DNA of 64,000 nt from Candidatus Heimdallarchaeota archaeon (lineage in GTDB: Archaea; Asgardarchaeota; Heimdallarchaeia; JABLTI01), in the NCBI GenBank assembly GCA_018238155.1, contig JABCTZ010000046.1:318784-382783 (forward strand), given 5' to 3'. This document shows, piece after piece, positions 7,336 to 62,902 of this stretch (the first letter of the stretch is position 1; each line of letters begins with the position of its first letter). A model generated the notes under the pieces. It ran no database searches. It saw nothing but the letters and a program-made list of their open reading frames with translations, and was not told the origin of the DNA. The position numbers and the translations under genes are program-made.

Positions 7336-8463
7336 TCAACCATGTCTAGTAATTCTTGGAAATAATCCTTTAAATTTCAGATAATCATAACTCCAAAGAA
7401 TAAATATTGAATTGTTCGGAGTATTGTGATTTAAAATAACAGGTATCGCACATTCAGCAAAACCCAATTTCAGAATTTGCGATCCACCTTTATCTGTATG
7501 TTCACTTTGAACAGCTGGATCATAATAATCATCTTTTAAAATTAAATCATATATTTTTTCCGAATCAGTTATTGTTATATTATCCTCTAAAATCTGAAGT
7601 ACTTCAATTCTATATTCGACATTTGGCTTTCTTTTTAACAGCTCTCTCATATATTTGTCTATATGTCTACGTGCTTTATTCGTTGCGATGCACAAAACAA
7701 TAACTACTAAATATTTTCTTTGAAAAAAACCCTTGTTCTTTTCTATTACTTTTATTGATTTGGCAATTTTTCCTTTGAATCTTCTTTTTTTCTTGTCAAT
7801 AAAACTTTTGCCACTTGCAGTGAAATCATCAAGTAAAAACAGCACTTCAAATCTATTACGTTTTTTTTCCCTTTTAAGCTTCAAATCATTTTCCTCCACA
7901 GGAATCTCTAGTAAACCTTTTTTCAATTCCTTTTGTAAATCTAGACGTTTATCTCTATTGATATAATATATTGAACAAATTTGCTCGTGACTTATTGAAT
8001 TTTTCTTATTCTCTCTCCTAAAATCACCCATCATTGATCCATCACTTAGACCCATGAATAAACATTTTCTAAGGAGAATTTTAAAGTAGGGATCACTAAT
8101 GTGCTGATTAATTAGATACTTGGGTTTTTTATTTCTATCAGCAACAATATCAATTAGTACTGGTAAAATTGACTTGTAGTAAATTAGCGAAACAAGGTGC
8201 AATATTTCTTGACGAGATATATAGATTAGTTTACTAGTAATGAAGTCATATGAAATCTTCTTATCATTATCATTATTGAACTGATCCAACCAAATTACAA
8301 AACTTTCTAAAAATCGCATTCCAATTGAGAAGTTTTGATAATTATCATATTTATATTGTGCAATAGCTCTTAATTCTTTAAGCTCATTTGCTATAGAGCT
8401 TTCATTCATCCATAAGAGAGTTTGCTTTAATATTGCTTCTGCGATTTCTTCGTTTATGTTCAA
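7336..8463 (-). CDS. Type I phosphoribosyltransferase-fold protein (conflict-system type)
   Basis: PRPP-binding loop LFLLDDFTASGKS; C-terminal HNTPNNS...LFPR motif. Confidence 0.75.
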   Translation of the reverse strand: MNINEEIAEAILKQTLLWMNESSIANELKELRAIAQYKYDNYQNFSIGMRFLESFVIWLDQFNNDNDKKISYDFITSKLIYISRQEILHLVSLIYYKSILPVLIDIVADRNKKPKYLINQHISDPYFKILLRKCLFMGLSDGSMMGDFRRENKKNSISHEQICSIYYINRDKRLDLQKELKKGLLEIPVEENDLKLKREKKRNRFEVLFLLDDFTASGKSFIDKKKRRFKGKIAKSIKVIEKNKGFFQRKYLVVIVLCIATNKARRHIDKYMRELLKRKPNVEYRIEVLQILEDNITITDSEKIYDLILKDDYYDPAVQSEHTDKGGSQILKLGFAECAIPVILNHNTPNNSIFILWSYDYLKFKGLFPRITRHG

Positions 8464-32428: not shown

Positions 32429-34297
32429 TCATTCTTCGTCTCTTTCTATCCATGAGAACTTATTTTGCAATGTTTTTGAGTAATAATTTCTCCAGTCATA
32501 GTCTACTTCTTTCCCCCAAGCATGATATACTCTTGGATCAATGTATGATTTCAAGCTAGTTCCTAAATTCCACTCCTTAGTTTTCTTGGAAATTCGCTCT
32601 TGTGATTCTATTTTCTTAAATGCTTCTTTTGCCTTGTAAACACGTTCCTTTGCAGTACCTACGCTATTCTTTCCTCTAACGATTTGACTTTGAGCGGTTT
32701 CTATACGTTTCTTAGCTGTGCCAATGCGTTTCCTTTGTGTTTGTACTTTCTTTTTTTGTTTCAAACTTGCTCGAATGAGTTTCTCTTTCTCCTTTGAATT
32801 TTGCTCAGAAGTAGAAAGATCATCTAGCTCAAGTAAATCAGCTTTCTTTTGCTCGAGAATTTTTTGTTGAGTTTTTTCTTGTTTTCGTCTTTCTTTTAGG
32901 TTCTTCTTAAGCTCTTCAAGACGTTCTTCTCTACCACTTTGATTTAGTTTTGCTTTTTCAATACGTTCAGTTGATTTAACCTTACGTTCTCTAAATCGTT
33001 GAATTCTATTATCCCAATTTTTGGGTACTTGTTTCATATGAGTACATACAACTGCTGCCTCTCTATTGGCCATCGTTGCAGCTTCTTTCTTTTTATACTC
33101 TGGATCATCTGCAGAAGTATCAGATTCTTCTAAATGAGCTGAAACGATATTTGTTGCATGAAACGTTCTAAATACTTTTGCTGTAAGACCGGGTACAATA
33201 TTACTGAAGAATTCATTTACATGAGTACTTCCTATTTTCGAGAAAATCTGAGGTTTATCTTGTAAACTCTTTTCAGCTTCATCAATTAGAAATTGCAATT
33301 CTTTCACAATATATAATGGAAAAGTAGTATTTTTATTCCATTCCACAGAATCTTTTCCAAGAAAATTAAAATTAACTTTTTCACCATCAATTGTTATATG
33401 TTCAGGTCTTAAAGTAGTTGCACCAACGGTATCTGCTTCATCTTCGTCCTTTTCATCACCGACTCTTAAAATTAATTGATCAATGATGTAACAAGCAAGA
33501 GCAATTTTCCTTGTGCGGGAATTATCACTTCTAATACCATTTTCTATTTCTAATCGAATTTTCTCTAAATGATTGTTAATTTTCCGGGCTTTGTTGAATT
33601 TTTCAATTTCTCTATCTTGTTTTATTGGTGTGTTATCGGATAACCACACATATTTTGTTCTTTTAGAAAGTTTATCTTCCCATTTTGCAACCCAAAGACA
33701 TTCTGGTTCCCATACTATCTCTTTCCATTTTTCATTCCAATTCTTTTCCTTTTGTTTTTCTGATAACTCACTTAAATTAAGAATTATATCTTTTGAACAA
33801 GGACCTTCTTTCCATTTACCTCTCATTGGATGTTCTCCCCGACCCATAAATATACTACTTGGTTCAGCGGTCCAAGCTCCAATTTCTACTTTCATTCCAT
33901 CTAAAGAAGCTGTGCCATAATATTCTTTTAACTCTTCTCGAACAATCTTTCGGTCTTCTCTTGCTTGCTTCTTTTGTTCTTTAGTTAAGCTTTCTCTCTT
34001 AGCTCTTTCAGATTCAATATGATCGATTACTTCAGAAAAATCAATATCTTCATCTGTGAGATTTTCATGCCCTAATTTTCTGCTGAAGTCAGCAAAGAAA
34101 TTCTTGCAAAAAACAGGATCATCTACATAGACTGTAGAAAGTTTTCTCACCCAGGCAATAGCCATTTGTTCTTGCATGGGATCGAGTTCTATCCTAGAAT
34201 CTTTTAGTCCGATTGTCAACCCAAGATGAGGAATATCTGAAATCATGATTCCGTTGTGAATTAATTTATTTATTTTTGCCAAGGGACTGAACCTCAC
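32429..34297 (-). CDS. Eukaryote-like DNA topoisomerase IB
   Basis: FMGRGEHPMRG, LRVGDEKD, ADTVG, FLGKDS, TAKVFRT, VCTH, long coiled-coil linker, catalytic Tyr in SLKSYIDPR. Confidence 0.95.
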   Translation of the reverse strand: MRFSPLAKINKLIHNGIMISDIPHLGLTIGLKDSRIELDPMQEQMAIAWVRKLSTVYVDDPVFCKNFFADFSRKLGHENLTDEDIDFSEVIDHIESERAKRESLTKEQKKQAREDRKIVREELKEYYGTASLDGMKVEIGAWTAEPSSIFMGRGEHPMRGKWKEGPCSKDIILNLSELSEKQKEKNWNEKWKEIVWEPECLWVAKWEDKLSKRTKYVWLSDNTPIKQDREIEKFNKARKINNHLEKIRLEIENGIRSDNSRTRKIALACYIIDQLILRVGDEKDEDEADTVGATTLRPEHITIDGEKVNFNFLGKDSVEWNKNTTFPLYIVKELQFLIDEAEKSLQDKPQIFSKIGSTHVNEFFSNIVPGLTAKVFRTFHATNIVSAHLEESDTSADDPEYKKKEAATMANREAAVVCTHMKQVPKNWDNRIQRFRERKVKSTERIEKAKLNQSGREERLEELKKNLKERRKQEKTQQKILEQKKADLLELDDLSTSEQNSKEKEKLIRASLKQKKKVQTQRKRIGTAKKRIETAQSQIVRGKNSVGTAKERVYKAKEAFKKIESQERISKKTKEWNLGTSLKSYIDPRVYHAWGKEVDYDWRNYYSKTLQNKFSWIERDEE

Positions 34298-34378
34298 ATT
34301 TCTTCATTCTATGGTATTTTTAAAAGCTGTGAATAGTCCATTTAAATGAATTAAAGAAAGACTAGATAAAAGATGGTA

Positions 34379-35083
34379 TTATCTTACCTCACATACTTTA
34401 AAATTAGCTTTAATTTTTTCACAAGCATCTTCAAGAATACCTAATCGATATGGTTGAAGTTTTTCAAATTCCTTATCATAACACTTCAGAGGTCTAAATT
34501 GTTGTATATATAACCTCTTTGCTCCTTTAATCATCTCAGCAATGATTGGTATGTCATGTTCTGGATCAATTATTGTAGGAACAATTGTTGTTCTAAATTC
34601 ATAATCAATATCAGAATTAATTATTATTTTAATAGACCTTAGAATATTTTTGATGTTAACTTTTTTACCTGCAGCGAGATGATATTTCTCTGGAATAGCT
34701 TTAACGTCCATTGCAATATAATCAAGCAATTTGTCATCTATAAGTTTCTGAATTACAGCAGGATGATTACCATTGGTGTCAATTTTTGTTTTTAGACCCA
34801 TTCCTTTGATAATTTTCAGAAATTCAGGCAATCTTTTACTGATCGAAGGTTCTCCTCCTGTAATAGATACTCCATCCAACCATTTGCTTTTTGATCTCTT
34901 TTCAATTTCTGCAAGAATTTCATCAATATCAAAACTTTTTACTGCATCTAAAGGAATTAAATCCGGATTATGGCAGAATGGGCATCGAAAATCACATCCT
35001 GCAAGAAAGATACTATCTACGATTAGACCAGACCACTCAATAATTGAACCTTGCTTATACCCCTTAATTTCAAGTCCCGGCAA
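34379..35083 (-). CDS. nrdG: Anaerobic ribonucleotide reductase activating enzyme (radical SAM)
   Basis: GCDFRCPFCHN, ITGGEP, DTNG, YEFRTT. Confidence 0.92.
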   Translation of the reverse strand: MPGLEIKGYKQGSIIEWSGLIVDSIFLAGCDFRCPFCHNPDLIPLDAVKSFDIDEILAEIEKRSKSKWLDGVSITGGEPSISKRLPEFLKIIKGMGLKTKIDTNGNHPAVIQKLIDDKLLDYIAMDVKAIPEKYHLAAGKKVNIKNILRSIKIIINSDIDYEFRTTIVPTIIDPEHDIPIIAEMIKGAKRLYIQQFRPLKCYDKEFEKLQPYRLGILEDACEKIKANFKVCEVR

Positions 35084-35102
35084 TTGTTATTTCATCTCGA
35101 TT

Positions 35103-35363
35103 TTATTTTGCTTGAAGCTCTTTTTGTACAAGATCTATTGGAGGTACTTCGCCTCTCCAAGCTTTGACTTCACTATCAGCTTCATCAACGATAATCATTG
35201 AAGGGGTTGAAAGAACATCAAAATAAACTGATTCTGATAAACCTTCTTCATCATCTAAATTAAACCACTCTACAGTAGTGCCTTTTTCTTCAAGTTTTTT
35301 TGCTAAATCTTTTGCTTGTGGGCATTTTGGACAATCTATTTTTGTAAATACTTTTAGTTTCAT
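35103..35363 (-). CDS. nrdH: NrdH-like thioredoxin/glutaredoxin
   Basis: CPKC redox motif, VLSTP cis-Pro; located in the nrd cluster. Confidence 0.8.
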   Translation of the reverse strand: MKLKVFTKIDCPKCPQAKDLAKKLEEKGTTVEWFNLDDEEGLSESVYFDVLSTPSMIIVDEADSEVKAWRGEVPPIDLVQKELQAK

Positions 35364-35478
35364 TTTCTGTCTATCCTCAAATTTTTTTCTGTCTATTATA
35401 CTATTAATCTAAAAAATAAATATAAAAAGATAAAGAAAGAGAAGGGGCGGACATGGTGGTCCGACTTGATTAAGCACC

Positions 35479-35712
35479 CTATACGTCATCAGACCAATAA
35501 TTGCCTTTTTGTCTTCTCTTTAACTCTGATTTCTTAGAGTTGTTCCAATTATCAATTATACTAAAGTATCCTACTACTCTGCTTATACCGTAAACATTGT
35601 CGCTGTTACAGTATGGGCAATTAGGAGTAGAACACGTTTCACCTACATGTTCTATATTTTGTTCTGTTCTTACAGTGGTTATTTTTGTTATAGTTGTTTT
35701 TGCCTGTTCCAT
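35479..35712 (-). CDS. Stand-alone glycyl-radical domain of class III RNR
   Basis: CPYCNSDNVYGISRVVGYFS..NWNNSKKSELKRR; own SD (GAGG) and TATAAAT box (35753-35759). Confidence 0.85.
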   Translation of the reverse strand: MEQAKTTITKITTVRTEQNIEHVGETCSTPNCPYCNSDNVYGISRVVGYFSIIDNWNNSKKSELKRRQKGNYWSDDV

Positions 35713-35792
35713 ACGATTTTTCCTCTATAGTTGATTTTTTCTTTTTTAAGCCATTTATACTGTTTTTTTTATTATTTCTTTTTTTTAGCCCA

Positions 35793-38213
35793 CTATTGAC
35801 TTTGTGCAGAAGAGCTTGTTGATCTACCAAAGCCCCTACTAACTTGTCCACAATCTCTACAGACTGTAAACTCTGGGGAAAACACTATTTGTGCGCTCTG
35901 GGTATTATCCCATGTTTTCTTAACCAGATTCATAATTGATTCCGCCGAAGGCTTTTGCTCACCGACGAAAATATGTGTGATAGAACCGCTTTCAATAAGA
36001 GTATTGAATTTTCCTTGTTTAGAAATTCTATCAATGATATCAATAGGTGCATCAGCTGCGAAGTGTGCACTATTGGTATAGTAAATTGATCCTTCGTTAA
36101 TATCACCTTTGACATAATGAATACTGTCAGGATATTCCTTTAGATCAGTTCTCGCGAATTTAAATGGAGCACTTTCTCCTGGTGTTTCTTCAAGAGTAAC
36201 TGTCAAACCATGAAGCTTTTGGAGAGCTTTTGCTTTCAGGTTCATTCCAGCGATAACTTTCAAACCTAATTTGTAGGCTTTTTCACTGTCATGTAATTCT
36301 TCATCAATGAGATATTGCACACATTCATTTAATCCAATAACGCCAATGATGTAAGTTGCTTTTTCCAAATCAACATAGGGTCGTCCATCTTCAGCATTCA
36401 TACCAATTTGCCAAAGGGTGCCATTTTCTTGAGTCATAAGTTGAGTAATGAATGCCTTCTTCTCAAGATGAGCTTCCATCGCTAAATCCATTGCTCGTCT
36501 AATTTCTTCGATTGTCTTCTTTACGTTGCCTTTTCCAGCACGATATGCTGCTTGTGGTAAATTAATGCTTACATTTTGGAATCCACAATAGCGCATGCTT
36601 TCAGGATGTTCAATCATGTACATGTCAGTGATTGTTGTTTTTAGTCGACAACACATTGAAAGATTGATTTCATCACGATCAAATATGAAATAAGTTGAGC
36701 CATTCTCAGAAGATATCTTACAAGCCAGTTGTAACAATTTGTACTGTTTTGGGTCATCAAAGGAGCTTTGATCAACGTGTAAATCGAATTTTGGAAAGGG
36801 GAAAACTTTCGATTCAGAATCTCCTTCTAACCAAACTTCCATTAATGCTTTAGCAAACAATTGAGTTTCTTTTTCGTACTCGCCATAATTTTTTCCAGTG
36901 TATTTACCACCAGGACCAATTGCGGGAATATTTTTGAGATATCTAGGAATGCCTAGATGAATATTAAAATCTACAAAAAGGGTTTGTCCCCCTCTTGAGA
37001 ACGCATTTTGACTACAAGAATAAATCAATCGTTGTGCTTCTTGTTTAATTTGTTTATATGGGACACCAACAAAATATGGGGCATAAAAGATATTCAGATA
37101 AGCTAATCCTAAAGCACCGGCATAGTATGCTTGCATTGAAGCTAAGAATGTATTAAGATGCCCAGTAAGAGTATCTGCATGATTTGCTGGGTTTGAAACG
37201 GTTGAGAGATTTAACAAGTTCAGACCATATTTTTTGATATATTCCAAGCTATGTGCAGAGCAATATACCCTTACAGGGAAACCCAAATCATGCAGGTAAA
37301 TCATTCCTTTTCTATGTGCATTTGCTACTTCTGGAGAGAAAAGCTCCTGAAGAGCATATTTTTTCAAAACTGCTTCTGCAATAGCAAGGTTCACCGCCTC
37401 TGGATTATTGGCGACTACATTACTATTTTCTTTGCTTTTTGAATGAATAAGTTGTTTAAGATCGAAAATAGGCATACCAACAGATTTCTGTTGAGTTAAT
37501 TTTGATTTATACCCACGAATAAATAATTCATTATCAACTAAACTTCTGATAAGGTCAACCGAAATTACATCATAACCTGAAGCGAAAATCTTTCGCTCTA
37601 CTTCTGTAGAAACAGAATCGGCATCAGCTTGATCTAAACCAGCTTCTTTGACCAAAGCAGCAGAAATTTTCACTCGATCCCAGCTAGAAATTTCTTCACG
37701 AGTATCACCTGAAACCATTAAAAGAAGTTCAGTAGAATCACGACTTTTTACATCTACTTCTTTTACTACTTTTAGCTTCTCCAACTCACGTTCAAATGAA
37801 GCGATATCAGTGAATCGTCTATAAACTGAAGCATAACGAATATAGGCGACTTCGTCGAGTCCTCTGAGTTTTTTCATAACTAACTCTCCTACGATATTAG
37901 CTTCGATTTCCAATTCTTCGTTTTTTCTCAATTCACTTTCTATTTCATCAATAACTTCTTCAATTTCCTCAGAAGAAATAGGTCTTTTTTCGCAAGCCTT
38001 TACTATTCCTCTTTTAACTTTCTCACGATCAAATGGTTCCCTACGTTTATCCTTCTTTACAATAGTAAGCTTCACTTGTTCTATTCGTTCATAAGTTGAA
38101 AATCGCTTCTTACATTGAAGACATTCTCTTCTTCGTCTATTTGCTTTCATGTCTTCTGATGATCGTTTATCAACGACTCTTGTATTGGGCGATTGACAGT
38201 AAGGACATTTCAT
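35793..38213 (-). CDS. nrdD: NrdR-NrdD fusion: NrdR repressor plus second ATP cone plus class III RNR core, lacking the glycyl-radical loop
   Basis: MKCPYC..RRRRECLQC..RFSTYE and VAYIRYASVY (NrdR); YLHDL, VYCS, FPFP, SMCCRL, ETPGES, YYTNS (NrdD); ends shortly after TVCRDCG. Confidence 0.92.
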   Translation of the reverse strand: MKCPYCQSPNTRVVDKRSSEDMKANRRRRECLQCKKRFSTYERIEQVKLTIVKKDKRREPFDREKVKRGIVKACEKRPISSEEIEEVIDEIESELRKNEELEIEANIVGELVMKKLRGLDEVAYIRYASVYRRFTDIASFERELEKLKVVKEVDVKSRDSTELLLMVSGDTREEISSWDRVKISAALVKEAGLDQADADSVSTEVERKIFASGYDVISVDLIRSLVDNELFIRGYKSKLTQQKSVGMPIFDLKQLIHSKSKENSNVVANNPEAVNLAIAEAVLKKYALQELFSPEVANAHRKGMIYLHDLGFPVRVYCSAHSLEYIKKYGLNLLNLSTVSNPANHADTLTGHLNTFLASMQAYYAGALGLAYLNIFYAPYFVGVPYKQIKQEAQRLIYSCSQNAFSRGGQTLFVDFNIHLGIPRYLKNIPAIGPGGKYTGKNYGEYEKETQLFAKALMEVWLEGDSESKVFPFPKFDLHVDQSSFDDPKQYKLLQLACKISSENGSTYFIFDRDEINLSMCCRLKTTITDMYMIEHPESMRYCGFQNVSINLPQAAYRAGKGNVKKTIEEIRRAMDLAMEAHLEKKAFITQLMTQENGTLWQIGMNAEDGRPYVDLEKATYIIGVIGLNECVQYLIDEELHDSEKAYKLGLKVIAGMNLKAKALQKLHGLTVTLEETPGESAPFKFARTDLKEYPDSIHYVKGDINEGSIYYTNSAHFAADAPIDIIDRISKQGKFNTLIESGSITHIFVGEQKPSAESIMNLVKKTWDNTQSAQIVFSPEFTVCRDCGQVSRGFGRSTSSSAQSQ

Positions 38214-38342
38214 TATTCTAGTTCACTCGTTTTTTCTTAGGCACTATTTTCTTGCACCGAATTTTCCTTAGGGGTTTTATGTCGGGTTTAGGAGACGGTC
38301 TCGCCTCTGAGCGAGTTTGTTTCCATTGGAATGCACCAGAGA

Positions 38343-38389
38343 ATACCACATCTGGTGGTTTGTGTTCCCTCAAACACAACATATTGTAT
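38343..38389. promoter_or_regulatory. Tandem NrdR boxes
   Basis: ATACCACATCTGGTGG (38343-38358) and ACACAACATATTGTAT (38374-38389), 31 bp start-to-start, just downstream of a minus-strand TTTAAATA box (38415-38422). Confidence 0.8.
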
Positions 38390-38553
38390 ATAATACTGTG
38401 TTCTGAATCAATTGTATTTAAAGGTTATGAGAATAAAGTCATTTAAAAAAAGGAGTAATTGTCTATTATAATCGATAAAGAATTCAGTAAAGAGTTTTTC
38501 ACTTGAACAATTTGTAAAATAAAAAAAGAGAAATTGTCCTATAAATATTTCAT

Positions 38554-40320
38554 CTACAAGACAGTAACAGATTTGGCCAAGTTACGAGGGAAATCAGGAT
38601 CATTTCCACGAAGTACTGAAAGATGATAAGCAATTAACTGCAAAATTGGGATCATAGCAATTGGTTCAAGAGCAACTTTTCCAAGAGAGATATAATGATC
38701 AAAGATGTCTAACTTTTCAGAGGATATTCCAGTGATAATTCCACCACGAGCTTTAATTTGCATGATATTATTAATCATATCATCTTTGGTTTCATCATTT
38801 GGAACAAGTGCAATACAAGATATGCCGGGTTCAATGAGTGCAAGGGTATGATGTTTTAATTCACCACCTGCTAAAGCATCAGCGTGAATATAGGCAATTT
38901 CTTTGATCTTAAGTTCGCCTTCCATTGCAACAGGAAAAGCAACACCACGCCCAATTAAAAATAAGTTTTGTTTATTCAGTACTTTTTTAGATAACTCCTT
39001 GATGAAATCAGATTGTTTAATAATAATTTCAAATTGGTCGATGACTTCATTGAGTTGATCTTTACCCTCAGAAAGTTGATTGTTTAAGGCAAATGCTAAC
39101 AATACTAGTATAATCACTTGAGAAGTGAATGCTTTTGTGGAAGCAACTGCAATTTCGGGTCCGGCATTTAATGTAAGATATTGATCAGACTCGCGCATTA
39201 TAGTACTGCCCATTACATTTACTAAGGAAATAACCTTTGATCCTTTGCTTTTAGCAATTCTAATTCCTTCTAAAACATCAGCTGTTTCTCCGGATTGACT
39301 AATAGCAAAAAGAACAGTTTCATTATCAAACAAGTTTTGATAGGTTTTAAATTCAGACCCTAAAATTGGCATGAAATTCCGATGAGTAAATTTAGCAAAA
39401 TAAATCGATGCAATTAGACATGCACGATAAGAAGTTCCCGAACCGAGGAAATAAACATTTTTTGCTTGATGTAACAATTTCACAATGCCGGCTAATTTTA
39501 TAGGATCCTGGTCTAATGCATGCTTTGATACTTCAACTTCTTCTACAATTTCTTTTAACATGAAATGTGGATAGCCGGTTTTTGTAGCTTGTTCAGCAGT
39601 CCATTCGATTATAGAAATGTCCTTTTCAATTTCTTTTTCAGCTACTAAATCATAGATTTTACATTCATCATTAAGGATTGCTAATTCATAATTCTCTAAA
39701 ATAATTGCTTTATTGGTATATTCTAAAAAAGAAGTTATATCAGAAGAAGCAAAGAATTCATTGTTGCCTACGCCTATGATTAATGGGGAATCCTTTCTAA
39801 AACAATAAATTTCGCCCGAGTCTTGACTTAACAACAAAAAAGTGAAAGCTCCTTCTGCTTGTTCAGAAGTTTTCTTAATAGCGTCAATAAGATCTTTAGC
39901 TTGTTTCATATTTTCTTCTATTAAATGAACTAATACTTCAGTATCAGTTGTTGAATTGAAATGGTGCCCCTTTTCAATTAATTGCTTTTTTAATTCGACA
40001 TAATTTTCTAAGATACCATTGTGTATAAGAGCATATTTCTGGTCACATGAAGTAAAAGGATGAGCATTTTCCATAGTAACATTGCCATGTGTTGCCCAAC
40101 GAGTATGGGCGATACCTACTTTACCTGATAAAGATAAGAAATCTACTTTACCATTTACTTCCTCGATTCGACCTGTCCCTTTCTTAACATCAATAACTTT
40201 ATTTCCGTTTAATAATGCCATACCACAGGAATCATAACCACGATATTCTAATCGTTTCAATGAAGCTAGTAATATTGGTGAGGCTTGTCTTGTTCCAGAA
40301 TAACCTATAATTCCACACAT
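38554..40320 (-). CDS. glmS: Glutamine-fructose-6-phosphate transaminase
   Basis: MCGIIG, LEYRGYDS, HTRWATHG, SQSGETAD, PRNLAKSVTV. Confidence 0.97.
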   Translation of the reverse strand: MCGIIGYSGTRQASPILLASLKRLEYRGYDSCGMALLNGNKVIDVKKGTGRIEEVNGKVDFLSLSGKVGIAHTRWATHGNVTMENAHPFTSCDQKYALIHNGILENYVELKKQLIEKGHHFNSTTDTEVLVHLIEENMKQAKDLIDAIKKTSEQAEGAFTFLLLSQDSGEIYCFRKDSPLIIGVGNNEFFASSDITSFLEYTNKAIILENYELAILNDECKIYDLVAEKEIEKDISIIEWTAEQATKTGYPHFMLKEIVEEVEVSKHALDQDPIKLAGIVKLLHQAKNVYFLGSGTSYRACLIASIYFAKFTHRNFMPILGSEFKTYQNLFDNETVLFAISQSGETADVLEGIRIAKSKGSKVISLVNVMGSTIMRESDQYLTLNAGPEIAVASTKAFTSQVIILVLLAFALNNQLSEGKDQLNEVIDQFEIIIKQSDFIKELSKKVLNKQNLFLIGRGVAFPVAMEGELKIKEIAYIHADALAGGELKHHTLALIEPGISCIALVPNDETKDDMINNIMQIKARGGIITGISSEKLDIFDHYISLGKVALEPIAMIPILQLIAYHLSVLRGNDPDFPRNLAKSVTVL

Positions 40321-58351: not shown

Positions 58352-59479
58352 TTGGTCAACATTAAACTTATTATCGATGGAATTGCAATTCCATTTGGTA
58401 TAATCGCATCGACTGTTATTATTTCCCGCAACAAACGTAACATAGCAAATATTTTGATAGGATTAATTGCTTTTCTTGCAGGAGTAGTTTCTGTTACATT
58501 TGGATTGTTGAAAGAAATATTTTTTCCGATCAATGTTGAAATTGCTATGATTTTTGTAAAATTAGCCTTTTTATCTATGTTTCTAATGACAATTCCAGCA
58601 TTGAGTTTTTCGATTTTTTTCTGGAAAGCTAAATATAAGAAAATACCTAATTTCCTCCATATTGGATCATTTATTCCTTCAATAATTCTTGCTATTTGGT
58701 TATTTGCAGAAGCGAATTGTATTCAATTTATTGAAACAGATTATGGTATAAACAATTTTTTAACAGAGCCCCTGATTATCTATAGCCTTGTTATAATTTT
58801 GTCAACATTGCTTCTTACAGTAATTGAATTACGATTTATGGCAAAAAATGCTAAATCTTTTCCACAACTAAGAAGAAGAATGAATTTATTTACTTTAGGT
58901 TTCGCAGTAGGTTTTGGTGGTTCTTTCGTTTCTCTATATCTTCTTGAATACCTTTTTCAAGATATTATACAACCTTATGCTCTCTTTGTTATTTTTACAA
59001 CCATTAGCTTAACACTAGCCTTTTCCACTTCCTTAAGTGAAGAGGAAGTAACATTATGGCACGGTTGTCCAAAGCTACTGCATAACAATGGGAACTCAAC
59101 TATGTGCATAAATACTGATGATGGTCTTCCTATAGATGTGAAATTACTCGATATTGGGAATATAATTGAAAGAATACAAATTGATACTGAAGTATTGAAA
59201 ACAGGATCAGGAAATTGTACCAATACCGTTTTTTCTGATGAAGATAATATTGTTCGATGTTTAACAACACATAGACCAATCAAAGTATTAGATGAGCAAG
59301 TTACGAGAGAGGAAATGGAGCTTGCACGCCAAATGGATATTATGAATGGAAATGAATTATGTTCAGATTGTCTACATAAAATCATTAGTTATAGAAAAGA
59401 GCATAAAAACAAAACGGATTCAGAAATTAAAATGCTCTTTCTTGGGATACGAGCCGAAGAATTCTTTGGTATTTGTTAG
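58352..59479 (+). CDS. Seven-TM membrane protein with Cys-rich cytoplasmic domain
   Basis: About seven hydrophobic segments, then GCP, MC, GNC, RC, LCSDC. Confidence 0.65.
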   Translation: MVNIKLIIDGIAIPFGIIASTVIISRNKRNIANILIGLIAFLAGVVSVTFGLLKEIFFPINVEIAMIFVKLAFLSMFLMTIPALSFSIFFWKAKYKKIPNFLHIGSFIPSIILAIWLFAEANCIQFIETDYGINNFLTEPLIIYSLVIILSTLLLTVIELRFMAKNAKSFPQLRRRMNLFTLGFAVGFGGSFVSLYLLEYLFQDIIQPYALFVIFTTISLTLAFSTSLSEEEVTLWHGCPKLLHNNGNSTMCINTDDGLPIDVKLLDIGNIIERIQIDTEVLKTGSGNCTNTVFSDEDNIVRCLTTHRPIKVLDEQVTREEMELARQMDIMNGNELCSDCLHKIISYRKEHKNKTDSEIKMLFLGIRAEEFFGIC

Positions 59480-59491
59480 CGAATATTTTTA

Positions 59492-59995
59492 CTATGTTTT
59501 CCAACTTGTAGAATGGTAAGATCGAACAATAGGATCAAAATTAATTAACAATTCTAAATCTTCAAAATCTACTTGACCTATTTTAAATCCCTTTATACCA
59601 CATTGGTTCATTTTCTTTGAAAGCTTTCCCTCATCAATAAGTGAATGAATATGATTTAGAGAATACCCACGACTTAATTTTGTATGGATTCTTAAAACAA
59701 TTTGATTCCCGAGTTTACTTACTACTTTGAAAATAAATTTGATTTGATTTGGGGAATGAGGTACCAATGAATTACAATAGACAATAAAATAATCATTTAT
59801 TTTCACTTTCTCATAATCTTGATTGTTCTTCATTGATTCAGCATCAATTTTAAATCGATTGTGAAGTAAAACATCTTCAGCGAAGATTGGCTTACCAAGG
59901 GTTTCGTTAAACTTGCTAGGCACATAATTTTTACGTGTGCTATCAACTTGGATTAAAAACGCATTCGTTCTCTTCAGTAAGTTCATCTTAATCAC
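59492..59995 (-). CDS. Hypothetical protein, possibly EVE/PUA-like
   Basis: KVKINDYFIVYC...IKFIFKV pattern. Confidence 0.5.
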   Translation of the reverse strand: MIKMNLLKRTNAFLIQVDSTRKNYVPSKFNETLGKPIFAEDVLLHNRFKIDAESMKNNQDYEKVKINDYFIVYCNSLVPHSPNQIKFIFKVVSKLGNQIVLRIHTKLSRGYSLNHIHSLIDEGKLSKKMNQCGIKGFKIGQVDFEDLELLINFDPIVRSYHSTSWKT

Positions 59996-60152
59996 TAACT
60001 ATGTCCAAATGAAGGAGCTATTAATATTCTCCGATACTCTTCGTATTGTTTGGATAGTAGAGGAATACTTACAGAACCAATATTCATATTTAAAAGGAAA
60101 ATTAAAAAAATAGAAAAGGAATAAACTAGCTATTAGTTAGGATTGAAGAACA

Positions 60153-61082
60153 ATGAGCGATGATCTAATACCAATCTATTACTCAGATATGGCTGATGCA
60201 TTATATTTCTTTGAATATCATGGTCCTCTTTACAAAAAGATAAATTGGAAAGAACGAGATAGCCACGTGAAAGAGCTTTACAAAATTATCAGACAAATCA
60301 AATTTCCAAGATTGAAAATGCTTTTACCTTGGGCGAGAACACAAGCAGTTCTTCATGATTTAACAACACCAAAGAGCTTGACAAAATATATTAAAAACAA
60401 CCCACCAAAAGGGAAATTCGCAGAAAAATGGTTAGCTGAAATTGGAAAAATGACTGATATTTTTCAAGAAATCTTAAACATCTATACTAAGAAAATATTG
60501 ACTCGAGAGAAAAGAAAGGAGCTAGAACATAACAGAAAAATGATTGTAAAAAAATATTCTAAGACATGGGACAAATTAAAAAGAGAGACTGAAAAAATTC
60601 ACGGATTTACTTGGAAAAGAAAGGAACCAATGATCTGTTTGTTGTATCCAATAGATGGCAGATTATCTCATAAATTGAAATTTGCTGATATTGCATTTAT
60701 TGAAACTTCTGATAAAATGTTAAAAAATAAGAGTATGTTTTTACATGAAGTAGTTAAGCTTCTAAATTACACTAAAACGATTTTTGCTTGGGTGAAACAA
60801 GATAGAAGAGGAATACGTGCAATTGCTTATGAATTATTCACAGAAATGCAAACAATGCTTTTAGTTGAAAAAATATTCAAAAAGAAACCTAATTTTCAAG
60901 TAATGTTAGAAAAACTAGACACTCTTTGGATTCCATTTATTCGCTCAGGAACATCTTTTGATGATGATGAACTAGAAAGAATTTTAGAAAATAGCTACGA
61001 ATTAATACCAAATACAGAATATGAACCTCTTTATCAATTAGGTGAACTCTATACTGAAATGAATATTATTTTACTTGAATAA
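60153..61082 (+). CDS. Hypothetical protein
   Basis: 309-aa ORF; FLHE resembles a partial zincin motif only. Confidence 0.65.
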   Translation: MSDDLIPIYYSDMADALYFFEYHGPLYKKINWKERDSHVKELYKIIRQIKFPRLKMLLPWARTQAVLHDLTTPKSLTKYIKNNPPKGKFAEKWLAEIGKMTDIFQEILNIYTKKILTREKRKELEHNRKMIVKKYSKTWDKLKRETEKIHGFTWKRKEPMICLLYPIDGRLSHKLKFADIAFIETSDKMLKNKSMFLHEVVKLLNYTKTIFAWVKQDRRGIRAIAYELFTEMQTMLLVEKIFKKKPNFQVMLEKLDTLWIPFIRSGTSFDDDELERILENSYELIPNTEYEPLYQLGELYTEMNIILLE

Positions 61083-61206
61083 TGCAAAAAAAAGTAACCC
61101 TCATTTGGTTTACTTTCTTTTATTCATTATCAATTAAAGTAAGTATCTTTTTGGAAATAATTTGTAATGGTTTTTATAGTTATACAGACTAGATAATATT
61201 AGATAA

Positions 61207-61737
61207 TTGGTAAAGAGGGAAATGAAATTGAACAAATTTAATTCACTTTATTGTCCGTATTGTGGTTCAGATCAAGAGAATGAAAACCGTTTTTGTATTG
61301 CGTGTGGTGCAGATATAAGTGAAACTGCAGAGGAAAAATCAACTAATATTCGGATTATTACTGAACGCCCTATGAATTCTAATGATTACCAAAGATTAAA
61401 TGCATCATCAGCTACTTTGGGAAGTTTTGCAATACAACAGGCTTCAAGTACAGCATCAGGTAGTTCTCCTGTTTATAGCTCAACACCTAAACGAACTTCA
61501 AATACAAGCAATGCTACAATTGCTATTATCCTAGGAATCATTGGATACTCTATCAGCTGTTTTATTGTTCCACTTGTTGGACTCCTTTTCGTTAGAAAAG
61601 CAGAAGAACAGCACGAAGATCCGTCAACAATAAAAATAGCCAAAGTATTGAATTGGGTTCAATTGATTTTGGTTCTAATAGGTACAGTATCAGTATTCGT
61701 CTATTATACGGTTTATTTTGGATTCAGGTTTTTGTAA
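61207..61737 (+). CDS. Zn-ribbon plus Ser-rich linker plus 2-TM protein (paralog 1)
   Basis: CPYCG..FCIACG; two C-terminal TM segments. Confidence 0.75.
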   Translation: MVKREMKLNKFNSLYCPYCGSDQENENRFCIACGADISETAEEKSTNIRIITERPMNSNDYQRLNASSATLGSFAIQQASSTASGSSPVYSSTPKRTSNTSNATIAIILGIIGYSISCFIVPLVGLLFVRKAEEQHEDPSTIKIAKVLNWVQLILVLIGTVSVFVYYTVYFGFRFL

Positions 61738-61836
61738 TTTAAATTACAAAACCAAAATTTTTTTCAAAAAAATTCTAATCGTTTATATACTAGTAAATTA
61801 ATTATAAATCAAAATAATGGAAAGAGTGTATTAAGA

Positions 61837-62334
61837 GTGAGTAATTCTGAATCCACAATTTGTTCTAAATGTGGGAAAAAACAGGAAGAAGAAAGCATAA
61901 TCTGCAGTTCATGTGGTGCAGATTTAAGAATGAAAACAGAAGTACGTTCAATTGATAATCGAACTCTAACTCATAGACCAGTAGAAGAAGAGAAATTCAA
62001 TTGGAAGAGTACAACTTCTAAAAAAATCGGTAGGTTTACTCCGGGCAGTCAAGAATCTGGAGAATTTAGCTCATCATCTTTTGCTAAAGCAAGCTATATT
62101 CCATCGAGAGATAATGCACAAAGAGCATTAATTTTAGGCTTCATTGGTCTCATCATTAACTTCCTCTACATATTTACAATTATTGGTTTACAATTCGTAA
62201 AAAACGCAGAATTAGATAATGAGGATCCAAAAATGATTGGCATTGCCAAAATCCTTCTTTGGTTGCAAGTCTTTGGTTGGTCAATTATTTATATTGGATT
62301 AATCATTTGGGGATTAATTGCGTCAGGAAAATAA
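61837..62334 (+). CDS. Zn-ribbon plus 2-TM protein (paralog 2)
   Basis: CSKCG..CSSCG; shares FVxxAE..EDP..I.IAK with paralog 1. Confidence 0.75.
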   Translation: MSNSESTICSKCGKKQEEESIICSSCGADLRMKTEVRSIDNRTLTHRPVEEEKFNWKSTTSKKIGRFTPGSQESGEFSSSSFAKASYIPSRDNAQRALILGFIGLIINFLYIFTIIGLQFVKNAELDNEDPKMIGIAKILLWLQVFGWSIIYIGLIIWGLIASGK

Positions 62335-62902
62335 AACGACTGGAAATAATTGTATTAGTGATTTCGATTTTATTAAATATAACGGAAAAAAATTACTAAT
62401 AATTATCAAGGAGAAAAAATCATTGAGAGAAAATGCAAGCCATTGTCCATTCTGTGGTTCTTTAATAGAACCAGACAGTGAATTTTGTAATAATTGTGGT
62501 GCATCTTTAAATGGATCACACAAAACTGAAAGGCAAAGTACTGTTTACAGAACTACAGGAACACCTACCGAGTCTACAAATGAAAATTTCTCTAGTAGCG
62601 TTCCTCCTTCACATCAATATGGAGCTACATATTCAAAATACCCAAATTCACAAACAGTTTATGTACCTCAAGAATCAAATAGCAGCTCAGCAGGGTTAAT
62701 TGCTCTAATCTTTGGTATATTAGGGTGTATAGGATGTTTACCAGGTATTGGAAGTGTGGTTGCAATTTTTGCTGGAACCTTAGCAAGAAAAGAAGATACA
62801 TCAGACAATATAGGGTTTTTACTTGGTTGGCTTGGATTATGTTCTTTCATACTTTTAGTTGTAGCAGCTTGTATTTTAATTCCGATATTTTTACGTATGT
62901 AA
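62318..62902 (+). CDS. Zn-ribbon plus TM protein (paralog 3); true start uncertain, probably downstream
   Basis: CPFCG..FCNNCG; ALIFGILG TM motif. Confidence 0.7.
   Translation: MRQENKTTGNNCISDFDFIKYNGKKLLIIIKEKKSLRENASHCPFCGSLIEPDSEFCNNCGASLNGSHKTERQSTVYRTTGTPTESTNENFSSSVPPSHQYGATYSKYPNSQTVYVPQESNSSSAGLIALIFGILGCIGCLPGIGSVVAIFAGTLARKEDTSDNIGFLLGWLGLCSFILLVVAACILIPIFLRM

Follow-up and report, generated by a model that had tools for sequence, protein, structure and literature searches.

The stretch of DNA analyzed here (64,000 nucleotides (nt) of contig JABCTZ010000046.1, hereinafter the window) comes from a metagenome-assembled genome (MAG) labeled Heimdallarchaeota that is 90.7% complete, with 5.9% contamination. 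An operon-like row of genes on its minus strand, in the order nrdD, an open reading frame (ORF) of 77 amino acids (aa), a thioredoxin-like gene and nrdG, encodes a class III ribonucleotide reductase (RNR) in which the catalytic protein NrdD ends in the middle of the C-terminal zinc ribbon, whereas the remainder of the ribbon, together with the glycyl-radical loop, is encoded by the next gene. Very probably, this is a naturally two-chain class III RNR with obligate alpha and beta chains; from sequence comparison and modeling, we infer the assembly of the two chains, the sharing of zinc, the location of the radical on beta and the use of beta paralogs. The relevant genes and motifs are the following:

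35793–38213, minus strand: nrdD body (alpha chain, 806 aa), with Pfam and TIGR02487 matches
36648–36653, minus strand: finger loop Cys521-Cys522 (MCCRL), the expected thiyl-radical site
35850–35861, minus strand: first zinc knuckle CRDC (Cys785, Cys788), located by sequence, both cysteines invariant in 70 bodies
35713–35792, minus strand: 80-nt spacer between nrdD and the small gene, with the TAG stop context of the body, TATAAAT, TAG and GAGG
35479–35712, minus strand: small chain gene (beta, 77 aa), with a PF13597 match
35608–35619, minus strand: second zinc knuckle CPYC (Cys32, Cys35), invariant in 20 small proteins from three paralog groups
35566–35583, minus strand: radical loop SRVVGY, in which Gly48 (35569–35571) is the predicted glycyl-radical site
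35103–35363, minus strand: thioredoxin/glutaredoxin-like gene (86 aa, CPKC motif; PF13192, E = 1.1e-5)
34379–35083, minus strand: nrdG, radical-SAM activase (TIGR02495, NrdG2, 187.9 bits against a cut-off of 131.15)

The NrdD body lacks a glycyl-radical loop

The alpha chain consists of an NrdR-like zinc ribbon, ATP-cone(s) and the NRDD catalytic barrel (PF22811, PF03477, PF13597). The match to PF13597 covers positions 1–517 of the 562 positions of the profile (E = 7.5e-113; 378.5 bits against a cut-off of 26.2), and the match to TIGR02487 spans profile positions 1–537 (350.1 bits, cut-off 326.35). The MCCRL motif lines up with SCCRL, the finger loop of Thermotoga maritima NrdD (PDB 4COI), and C521, C522 and R523 are invariant in the alignment of 70 bodies. 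The C-terminus of the body reads ...SPEFTV-CRDC-GQVSRGFGRSTSSSAQSQ-TAG. The original prediction, made from the nucleotide sequence without database searches, had noticed that NrdD stops shortly after CRDC; the early stop is there, but the chain ends 18 residues past the second cysteine of this motif, not 16. A glycyl-radical loop (R-x-x-G-Y) is not found anywhere in the body. The conserved SRG[FY]GR motif in the tail of the body, which resembles a degenerate S-R-x-x-G loop, was considered as a candidate vestigial radical loop and rejected given that fused relatives (e.g., P0166 and P0194) carry this motif between the two knuckles; accordingly, the motif belongs to the regular zinc ribbon.

At the opposite end of the protein, residues 1–147 (37770–38213, minus strand) make up a complete NrdR, with 197 bits for TIGR00244 (cut-off 125) and E = 5e-39 against NrdR proteins of solved structure. 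At the Woesearchaeota locus L042, nrdR and nrdD are distinct genes, the former ending 2 nt ahead of the latter.

The missing part is encoded by the adjacent small gene

The 77-aa protein matches PF13597 at profile positions 518–561 (E = 3.3e-9) and TIGR02487 at positions 536–580, so that the NRDD profile is cut cleanly at 517|518 between the two ORFs. Apart from a weak zinc-ribbon match, PF13597 is the only Pfam family detected in this protein, which does not belong to the Gly_radical family of the pyruvate formate-lyase (PFL) type. In alignments with solved structures, the body extends to residue 688 of Prevotella copri NrdD (8P23) and to residue 596 of 4COI, and the small chain sets in at residues 695 and 603 of the same proteins, respectively; thus, the break is located precisely between the first and the second CxxC knuckle of the C-terminal zinc ribbon. 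The aligned counterparts of the CPYC motif are CPVC in T. maritima NrdD and CPKC in P. copri NrdD. The SRVVGY motif pairs with the RIVGY loop of T. maritima NrdD (residues 618–622 of 4COI, counted from the HMMER alignment), in which Gly621 is the radical glycine. The earlier reading of the locus, namely that a stop follows the first CxxC and that the second CxxC and SRVVGY lie in a 77-aa ORF in another frame, is borne out by the sequence.

The small chain includes a variable N-terminal region of about 28 residues, the second zinc knuckle, the glycyl-radical loop and a C-terminal segment with the pattern NWNxSKxxELKxRQxGxYW. Among the 20 small proteins from three paralog groups, 25 columns between C32 and W73 are invariant, including S44, R45, V47, G48, Y49, F50 and S51, and the first 28 or so residues show no such constraint. 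A third cysteine present in the small chain encoded in the window (CSTPNCPYC) was rejected as a ligand of the zinc site since it is missing at two linked loci (L010 and L011) and in all unlinked paralogs. The ratio of nonsynonymous to synonymous substitution rates (dN/dS) against orthologs is 0.12–0.27 for the linked small gene and 0.12–0.50 across all three copies of the gene, with small substitution counts; judging by these values, the small genes look to be under purifying selection. A tblastn search of 50,697 phage records with the 77-aa protein yielded no match at E = 1e-3.

The split is conserved in the entire family

The small ORF is in a different frame from the body ((38213 – 35712) mod 3 = 2), and the two are separated by 80 nt. 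The in-frame stop and the Shine-Dalgarno sequence that had been ascribed to the small ORF are both present: a TAG at 35727–35725 lies five codons ahead of the ATG, and GAGG at 35725–35722 precedes the ATG by 9 nt. The spacer contains four more stops in the frame of the small ORF and two more in the frame of the body. Given that stops occur in both frames, a single frameshift cannot join the two ORFs.

Nine linked loci are available in the same family, so that the same split, for which the original prediction proposed to look in related genomes, is indeed found there. At all nine loci, the body ends 16–22 residues past the first knuckle; the spacer is 46–80 nt long, with little sequence conservation and with frame offsets of 0, 1 and 2, the offset-0 loci having 3–4 in-frame stops in the spacer. 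The GAGG[AT]A sequence and the ATG are conserved in the nine loci, and the small protein starts with MEQ (MAK in L011). A six-frame search of 40 relatives detects the small protein as a stand-alone frame of 70–104 aa in 11 of the 11 genomes of the same family and within long frames elsewhere. In a sample of 301 genomes from the phylum, the strong stand-alone matches are all within the same family, nearly all of the other matches listed are in frames of approximately 640–2,470 aa, and the few short frames outside the family give weak matches only. Because the split is kept in every related genome examined, its conservation goes far beyond chance.

The split enzyme is the only RNR found in these archaea. 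The source genome encodes one NRDD body, three small proteins and one NrdG above the family cut-off (TIGR02495); neither a class I/II large subunit nor a one-piece NrdD was found in it. The 12 genomes of the family (MAGs of the relatives are named after cold seep and sediment) each possess one body and 2–3 small genes where assembled, the bodies ending at profile positions 516–519 except for one row that is read through the stop. A one-piece NrdD, which the original prediction had named among the observations that would speak against a split enzyme, is not found in any of the 11 same-family relatives, and PF02867 (class I/II) is not found in 11 of the 12 family genomes, the remaining one having a match of 16.8 bits at a contig end. 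With no other RNR found in the family, the split enzyme can be expected to work. The idea of a two-chain class III RNR as opposed to a broken gene is upheld; the body lacks the radical glycine, and neither a one-piece NrdD nor another RNR class was found in the genome. The sole other glycyl-radical enzyme found in this genome is a PFL-like protein (790-aa frame) with its own fused radical domain, the only PF01228 match.

A model of the proposed two-chain enzyme

A model of the complex was built from body residues 150–806 (with the alignment of 70 bodies), the small chain (with the alignment of 20) and one zinc ion. The modeled pair, which the original prediction had put forward as a check, passes: ipSAE is 0.87 in three runs, compared to 0.01 for the best of three controls. 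In the calibration, 58 of 80 solved complexes reached this mark, as did 2 of 110 mismatched pairs. At least 84% of the contacts recur between the runs, and the partner pLDDT is at least 65. The contacts with the lowest predicted error involve body residues 780–788 and small-chain residues 37–44 as well as the pairs C785-C32 and C788-C35, and finger-loop residues 522–523 lie within the modeled interface with the small chain. The candidate zinc site would thus comprise four cysteines, two per chain, all of which are invariant and placed in contact by the model, in agreement with the inter-subunit zinc site that had been proposed from the sequence.

The following scheme of the enzyme's operation is proposed. 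The alpha chain would contribute the regulatory N-terminus, the barrel, including its finger loop (Cys521-Cys522), and the first half of the zinc ribbon, and the beta chain would contribute the second half of the ribbon, the radical Gly48 and the C-terminal segment. The two would assemble through a common Zn(Cys)4 site and beta-strand pairing between alpha residues 780–788 and beta residues 37–44, which would set Gly48 beside the finger-loop cysteines as in one-piece NrdD. NrdG and S-adenosylmethionine would generate the radical on Gly48, with electrons probably coming from the thioredoxin-like protein encoded in the operon. Most likely, the linked beta gene shares a transcript with alpha and has its own translation start at the GAGG/ATG, and the beta paralogs described below should fit the same alpha.

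Unlinked paralogs of the small chain

Two further copies of the small gene are located elsewhere in the source genome:

contig C11, 60693–60866: unlinked small gene beside two Roadblock/LC7 genes
contig C1, 113056–113232: unlinked small gene beside an HD-domain gene

Nothing nrdD-like is encoded upstream of either copy. Both keep every interface residue, which suggests that their products should be compatible with the same alpha. The Roadblock-adjacent neighborhood is syntenic in 11 loci from both genera of the family, so that this copy appears to date to the family ancestor, and it has a T/A-rich upstream stretch that is conserved in three genomes. The C1 copy shows synteny only with the closest relative; in other genomes, the third copy is located elsewhere. 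The unlinked paralogs, which did not figure in the original prediction, are the best candidates for separate control of the beta supply.

Several details of these copies can be noted. In contig C11 (approximately 59200–62360, locus L023), the small gene is sandwiched between the Roadblock/LC7 pair and a gene for a lysine-rich 252-aa protein. In five unlinked copies from relatives (L012, L025, L027, L028 and L029), there is no ATG, GTG or TTG between the upstream stop and CPxC; the conserved start region of these copies is TGA GGG AT[AT] AAA ATA, in which GAGGG is a possible ribosome-binding site and ATA perhaps is the start. At positions 2465–2675 of locus L039 (contig C57 of genome G007), a TAA shortly past the radical loop terminates the small gene, with the loss of the conserved C-terminal segment; this copy is probably a pseudogene.

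Distribution beyond the family

The nearest 120 NrdD bodies were drawn from a protein collection clustered at 90% identity; 98 of these end 9–94 residues past the first CxxC without a radical loop, and the remaining 22 are one-piece. Within this subclade of NrdD, the split state predominates. An unrooted tree of 108 bodies, built with the columns of the trait itself left out, implies at least 8 changes between the split and fused states, 6 of which are forced by well-supported branches. In the Asgard clade, 21 of the 21 rows are split, and the sister of this clade is a one-piece protein on a long branch. Fission and/or fusion is frequent, with the direction not given by the unrooted tree. Among species-representative genomes, small ORFs linked to the 3' side of the body are present in MAGs labeled Micrarchaeota, Woesearchaeota, Nanoarchaeota, Nanohalarchaeota, Methanosarcinales and Saccharibacteria, and extra unlinked copies were identified in one Woesearchaeota MAG and one Methanosarcinales MAG. 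The one-piece form is represented in Brocadia, Jettenia, other Planctomycetota and Omnitrophota. Searched with a profile, a collection of 1.84 billion representative sequences yielded 117 clusters (50% identity) below E = 1e-10, most of those listed being 41–140 aa long.

In another archaeal lineage (L040 and L041, approximately 7741–7881, plus strand), the tip gene, i.e., the gene for the radical-loop segment, is found 1.26 kb downstream from the body, with three small ORFs in between; it was missed by the gene caller in one record, and the opposite strand was called in the other. A class I RNR (nrdA/nrdB) adjoins the split nrdD at this locus. Missed or wrong-frame calls of the small gene may be one reason why this layout went unnoticed; tipless bodies may pass for pseudogenes, and the respective genomes for RNR-deficient ones. 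In a genome from another Asgard family (G228, contig C6, 4711–11305), a stretch of 7 kb contains three radical-tip matches: a 724-aa frame holds one of them, and the other two are in short frames with TAA. This may be another lineage with tips that are loose or decayed.

The gene neighborhood and transcription of the small gene

The nrdG gene is located two genes downstream of the nrdD body. The intervening thioredoxin-like gene is also found in the nrdD operons of Woesearchaeota and another lineage, and its product is the probable reductant of the enzyme. Directly 3' of nrdG is a gene for a eukaryote-type topoisomerase IB (PF02919, PF01028, PF14370; 622 aa; 32429–34297, minus strand). A 70-aa Lys/Asn-rich ORF in the third frame (35639–35851, minus strand) covers the entire nrdD spacer and overlaps both flanking genes; most likely, it is a by-product of the A-rich spacer rather than a gene.

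The small gene was originally credited with its own TATAAAT box. The box is present at 35759–35753 but is not conserved even in a 96%-identical relative. In the window, which has a G+C content of 32%, TATAAAT occurs 23 times on both strands; one occurrence in an 80-nt spacer is uncommon, yet it lies within a 12-nt stretch that is missing in this closest relative, and the other linked relatives have 46–52 nt between the two genes. Since the box is unconserved and the spacers of the relatives are too short for a promoter, co-transcription of the linked small gene with nrdD is more likely than expression from its own promoter.

Alternative explanations

The two ORFs might be rejoined by a programmed frameshift, stop read-through, an RNA intron or protein splicing. 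The nrdD gene of phage T4 holds a group I intron and inteins are frequent in archaeal NrdDs; Pfam intein domains are detected in P0116 and P0157. However, two shifts would be required to pass the stops in both relevant frames of the gap, the relatives differ in the offset and length of a gap with little conserved sequence, and the unlinked small copies lack any upstream exon. A permissive Rfam scan of 34000–38600 detects no intron family, the sole match (MALAT1, E = 0.83) being attributable to chance, and a split intein was rejected because intein halves would have to be far longer than the tails (18 aa past the knuckle and some 28 aa ahead of CPYC). Rejoining is therefore highly improbable. 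A transposon at the split was considered as well, given that Tn7 insertion next to nrdD is the subject of a preprint (bioRxiv 10.1101/2025.07.27.667033), but no sign of a transposon was seen. The possibility that the split reflects a pseudogene or an error of assembly or sequencing comes to mind with any MAG; considering the recurrence of the split in nine relatives assembled independently and in dozens of contigs from metagenomes, the apparent purifying selection and the status of the split enzyme as the only RNR found, its probability is negligible. Several points nevertheless weigh against a naturally two-chain RNR. The modeled contacts match those in a one-piece NrdD cut at the same loop, so that the high score of the complex may be a memory of the solved one-chain NrdDs, in which case it would attest to likeness rather than binding; moreover, the custom alignments and the accompanying zinc ion differ from the conditions under which the score was calibrated. 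Outside the family, a split means a body without a radical loop, the small gene being confirmed only in the loci that were opened. Finally, the MAG is incomplete, and either another RNR or a one-piece NrdD might be missing from the assembly, although this would need to hold for all twelve family genomes.

The role of the unlinked paralogs allows different interpretations. These proteins might not carry radicals at all but rather function as regulators, as decoys that compete for alpha or as partners of another enzyme. Their neighbors (Roadblock/LC7 and the HD-domain gene) are unrelated to nucleotide metabolism, one group in the relatives has no canonical start codon and one copy is truncated. 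Against this stand the SR[IV]VGYFS motif and both cysteines, which are kept without exception, and the fused radical domain of the only other glycyl-radical enzyme found, which make a non-carrier role improbable. A different possibility, raised in the original prediction and compatible with the two-chain RNR, is that beta is a spare part that would keep alpha from oxygen damage: beta cleaved by O2 would be replaced on an intact alpha by fresh, NrdG-activated beta supplied by three genes, similarly to GrcA/YfiD. The presence of three beta genes per one alpha, two of them unlinked and one at a fixed position across the family, the invariance of the interface residues in all paralogs and the extra unlinked copies in the Woesearchaeota and Methanosarcinales MAGs are in line with this possibility, as is the location of the variable N-terminal region outside the modeled interface, reminiscent of the disordered N-terminus of YfiD (PMC13450708). 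On the other hand, the body lacks a tip, which makes the small chain a regular part rather than a spare; COX1 and cytochrome bd oxidase were not found in the source genome, so nothing points to regular exposure to oxygen; and several copies may be mere isoforms or serve dosage. We consider this role of beta unlikely on balance. Equally tentative is a cartridge-like cycle in which NrdG would charge free beta off the enzyme, the charged beta would dock via the zinc site, and spent or O2-cleaved beta would be swapped for beta from three differently controlled genes. Were this the case, deoxynucleoside triphosphate (dNTP) synthesis would have the beta supply as its main switch in these archaea. 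Such an arrangement would be the class III equivalent of the division of labor between R1 and R2 in class I, and the first spare-part system outside PFL.

Comparison with known systems

In the textbook view, a glycyl-radical enzyme is a single chain with a radical domain of its own, and to our knowledge, GrcA/YfiD of PFL is the one known exception. The two-chain RNR would be an essential enzyme with the radical domain obligatorily placed on a separate small protein, encoded by three genes in a lineage where no other RNR is found. It would offer an experimental handle on the access of the activase to the radical loop, the exchangeability of the radical domain and dNTP control in Asgard and DPANN archaea. 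In the full-text literature searched, the split class II RNR and GrcA/YfiD are described, but a split form of class III RNR is not; according to a 2026 review, spare parts are known for formate lyases only, and the existence of such proteins for other glycyl-radical enzymes is "yet to be determined" (PMC13450708).

The two-chain enzyme shares with one-piece NrdD and its NrdG (T. maritima 4COI/4U3E, P. copri 8P23, phage T4 1H78) the catalytic barrel, the activase family, the thioredoxin-like gene in the operon and the order of zinc knuckle 1, zinc knuckle 2 and R-x-x-G-Y loop; the double cysteine of the CCRL finger loop is shared with T. maritima NrdD. It differs in that the chain is cut between the knuckles, so that a separate 77-aa protein carries the radical glycine along with two of the four zinc cysteines, as well as in the added variable N-terminus of beta, the three beta genes and the complete NrdR-like module on the body. 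E. coli GrcA/YfiD and phage T4 Y06I similarly are small, stand-alone proteins with a glycyl-radical loop and a variable or disordered N-terminus, encoded by separate genes (PMC13450708). However, GrcA belongs to the Pfam family Gly_radical (PF01228), in contrast to the NRDD-only small protein; it has no half zinc site, and the enzyme that it rescues possesses a radical domain itself, whereas the archaeal body has none and would depend on the small chain. The split class II RNR of Pseudomonas aeruginosa, NrdJa and NrdJb, also has a Cys-rich, zinc-binding C-terminal part encoded by a separate gene (PMC4520616, PMC5704485), although it belongs to another class with another fold element, NrdJb being a reductant-shuttling domain rather than a radical carrier, with no glycyl radical involved.

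In class I RNR (NrdA/NrdB), the stable radical resides on a small separate subunit, the supply of which can be controlled apart from the catalytic chain. The placement of the radical on a small separate subunit follows the same logic in the two-chain class III enzyme, but the proteins and the chemistry are unrelated: a ferritin-like subunit with a tyrosyl/metal radical and long-range transfer in the former case, as opposed to a glycyl radical inserted into the barrel in the latter.

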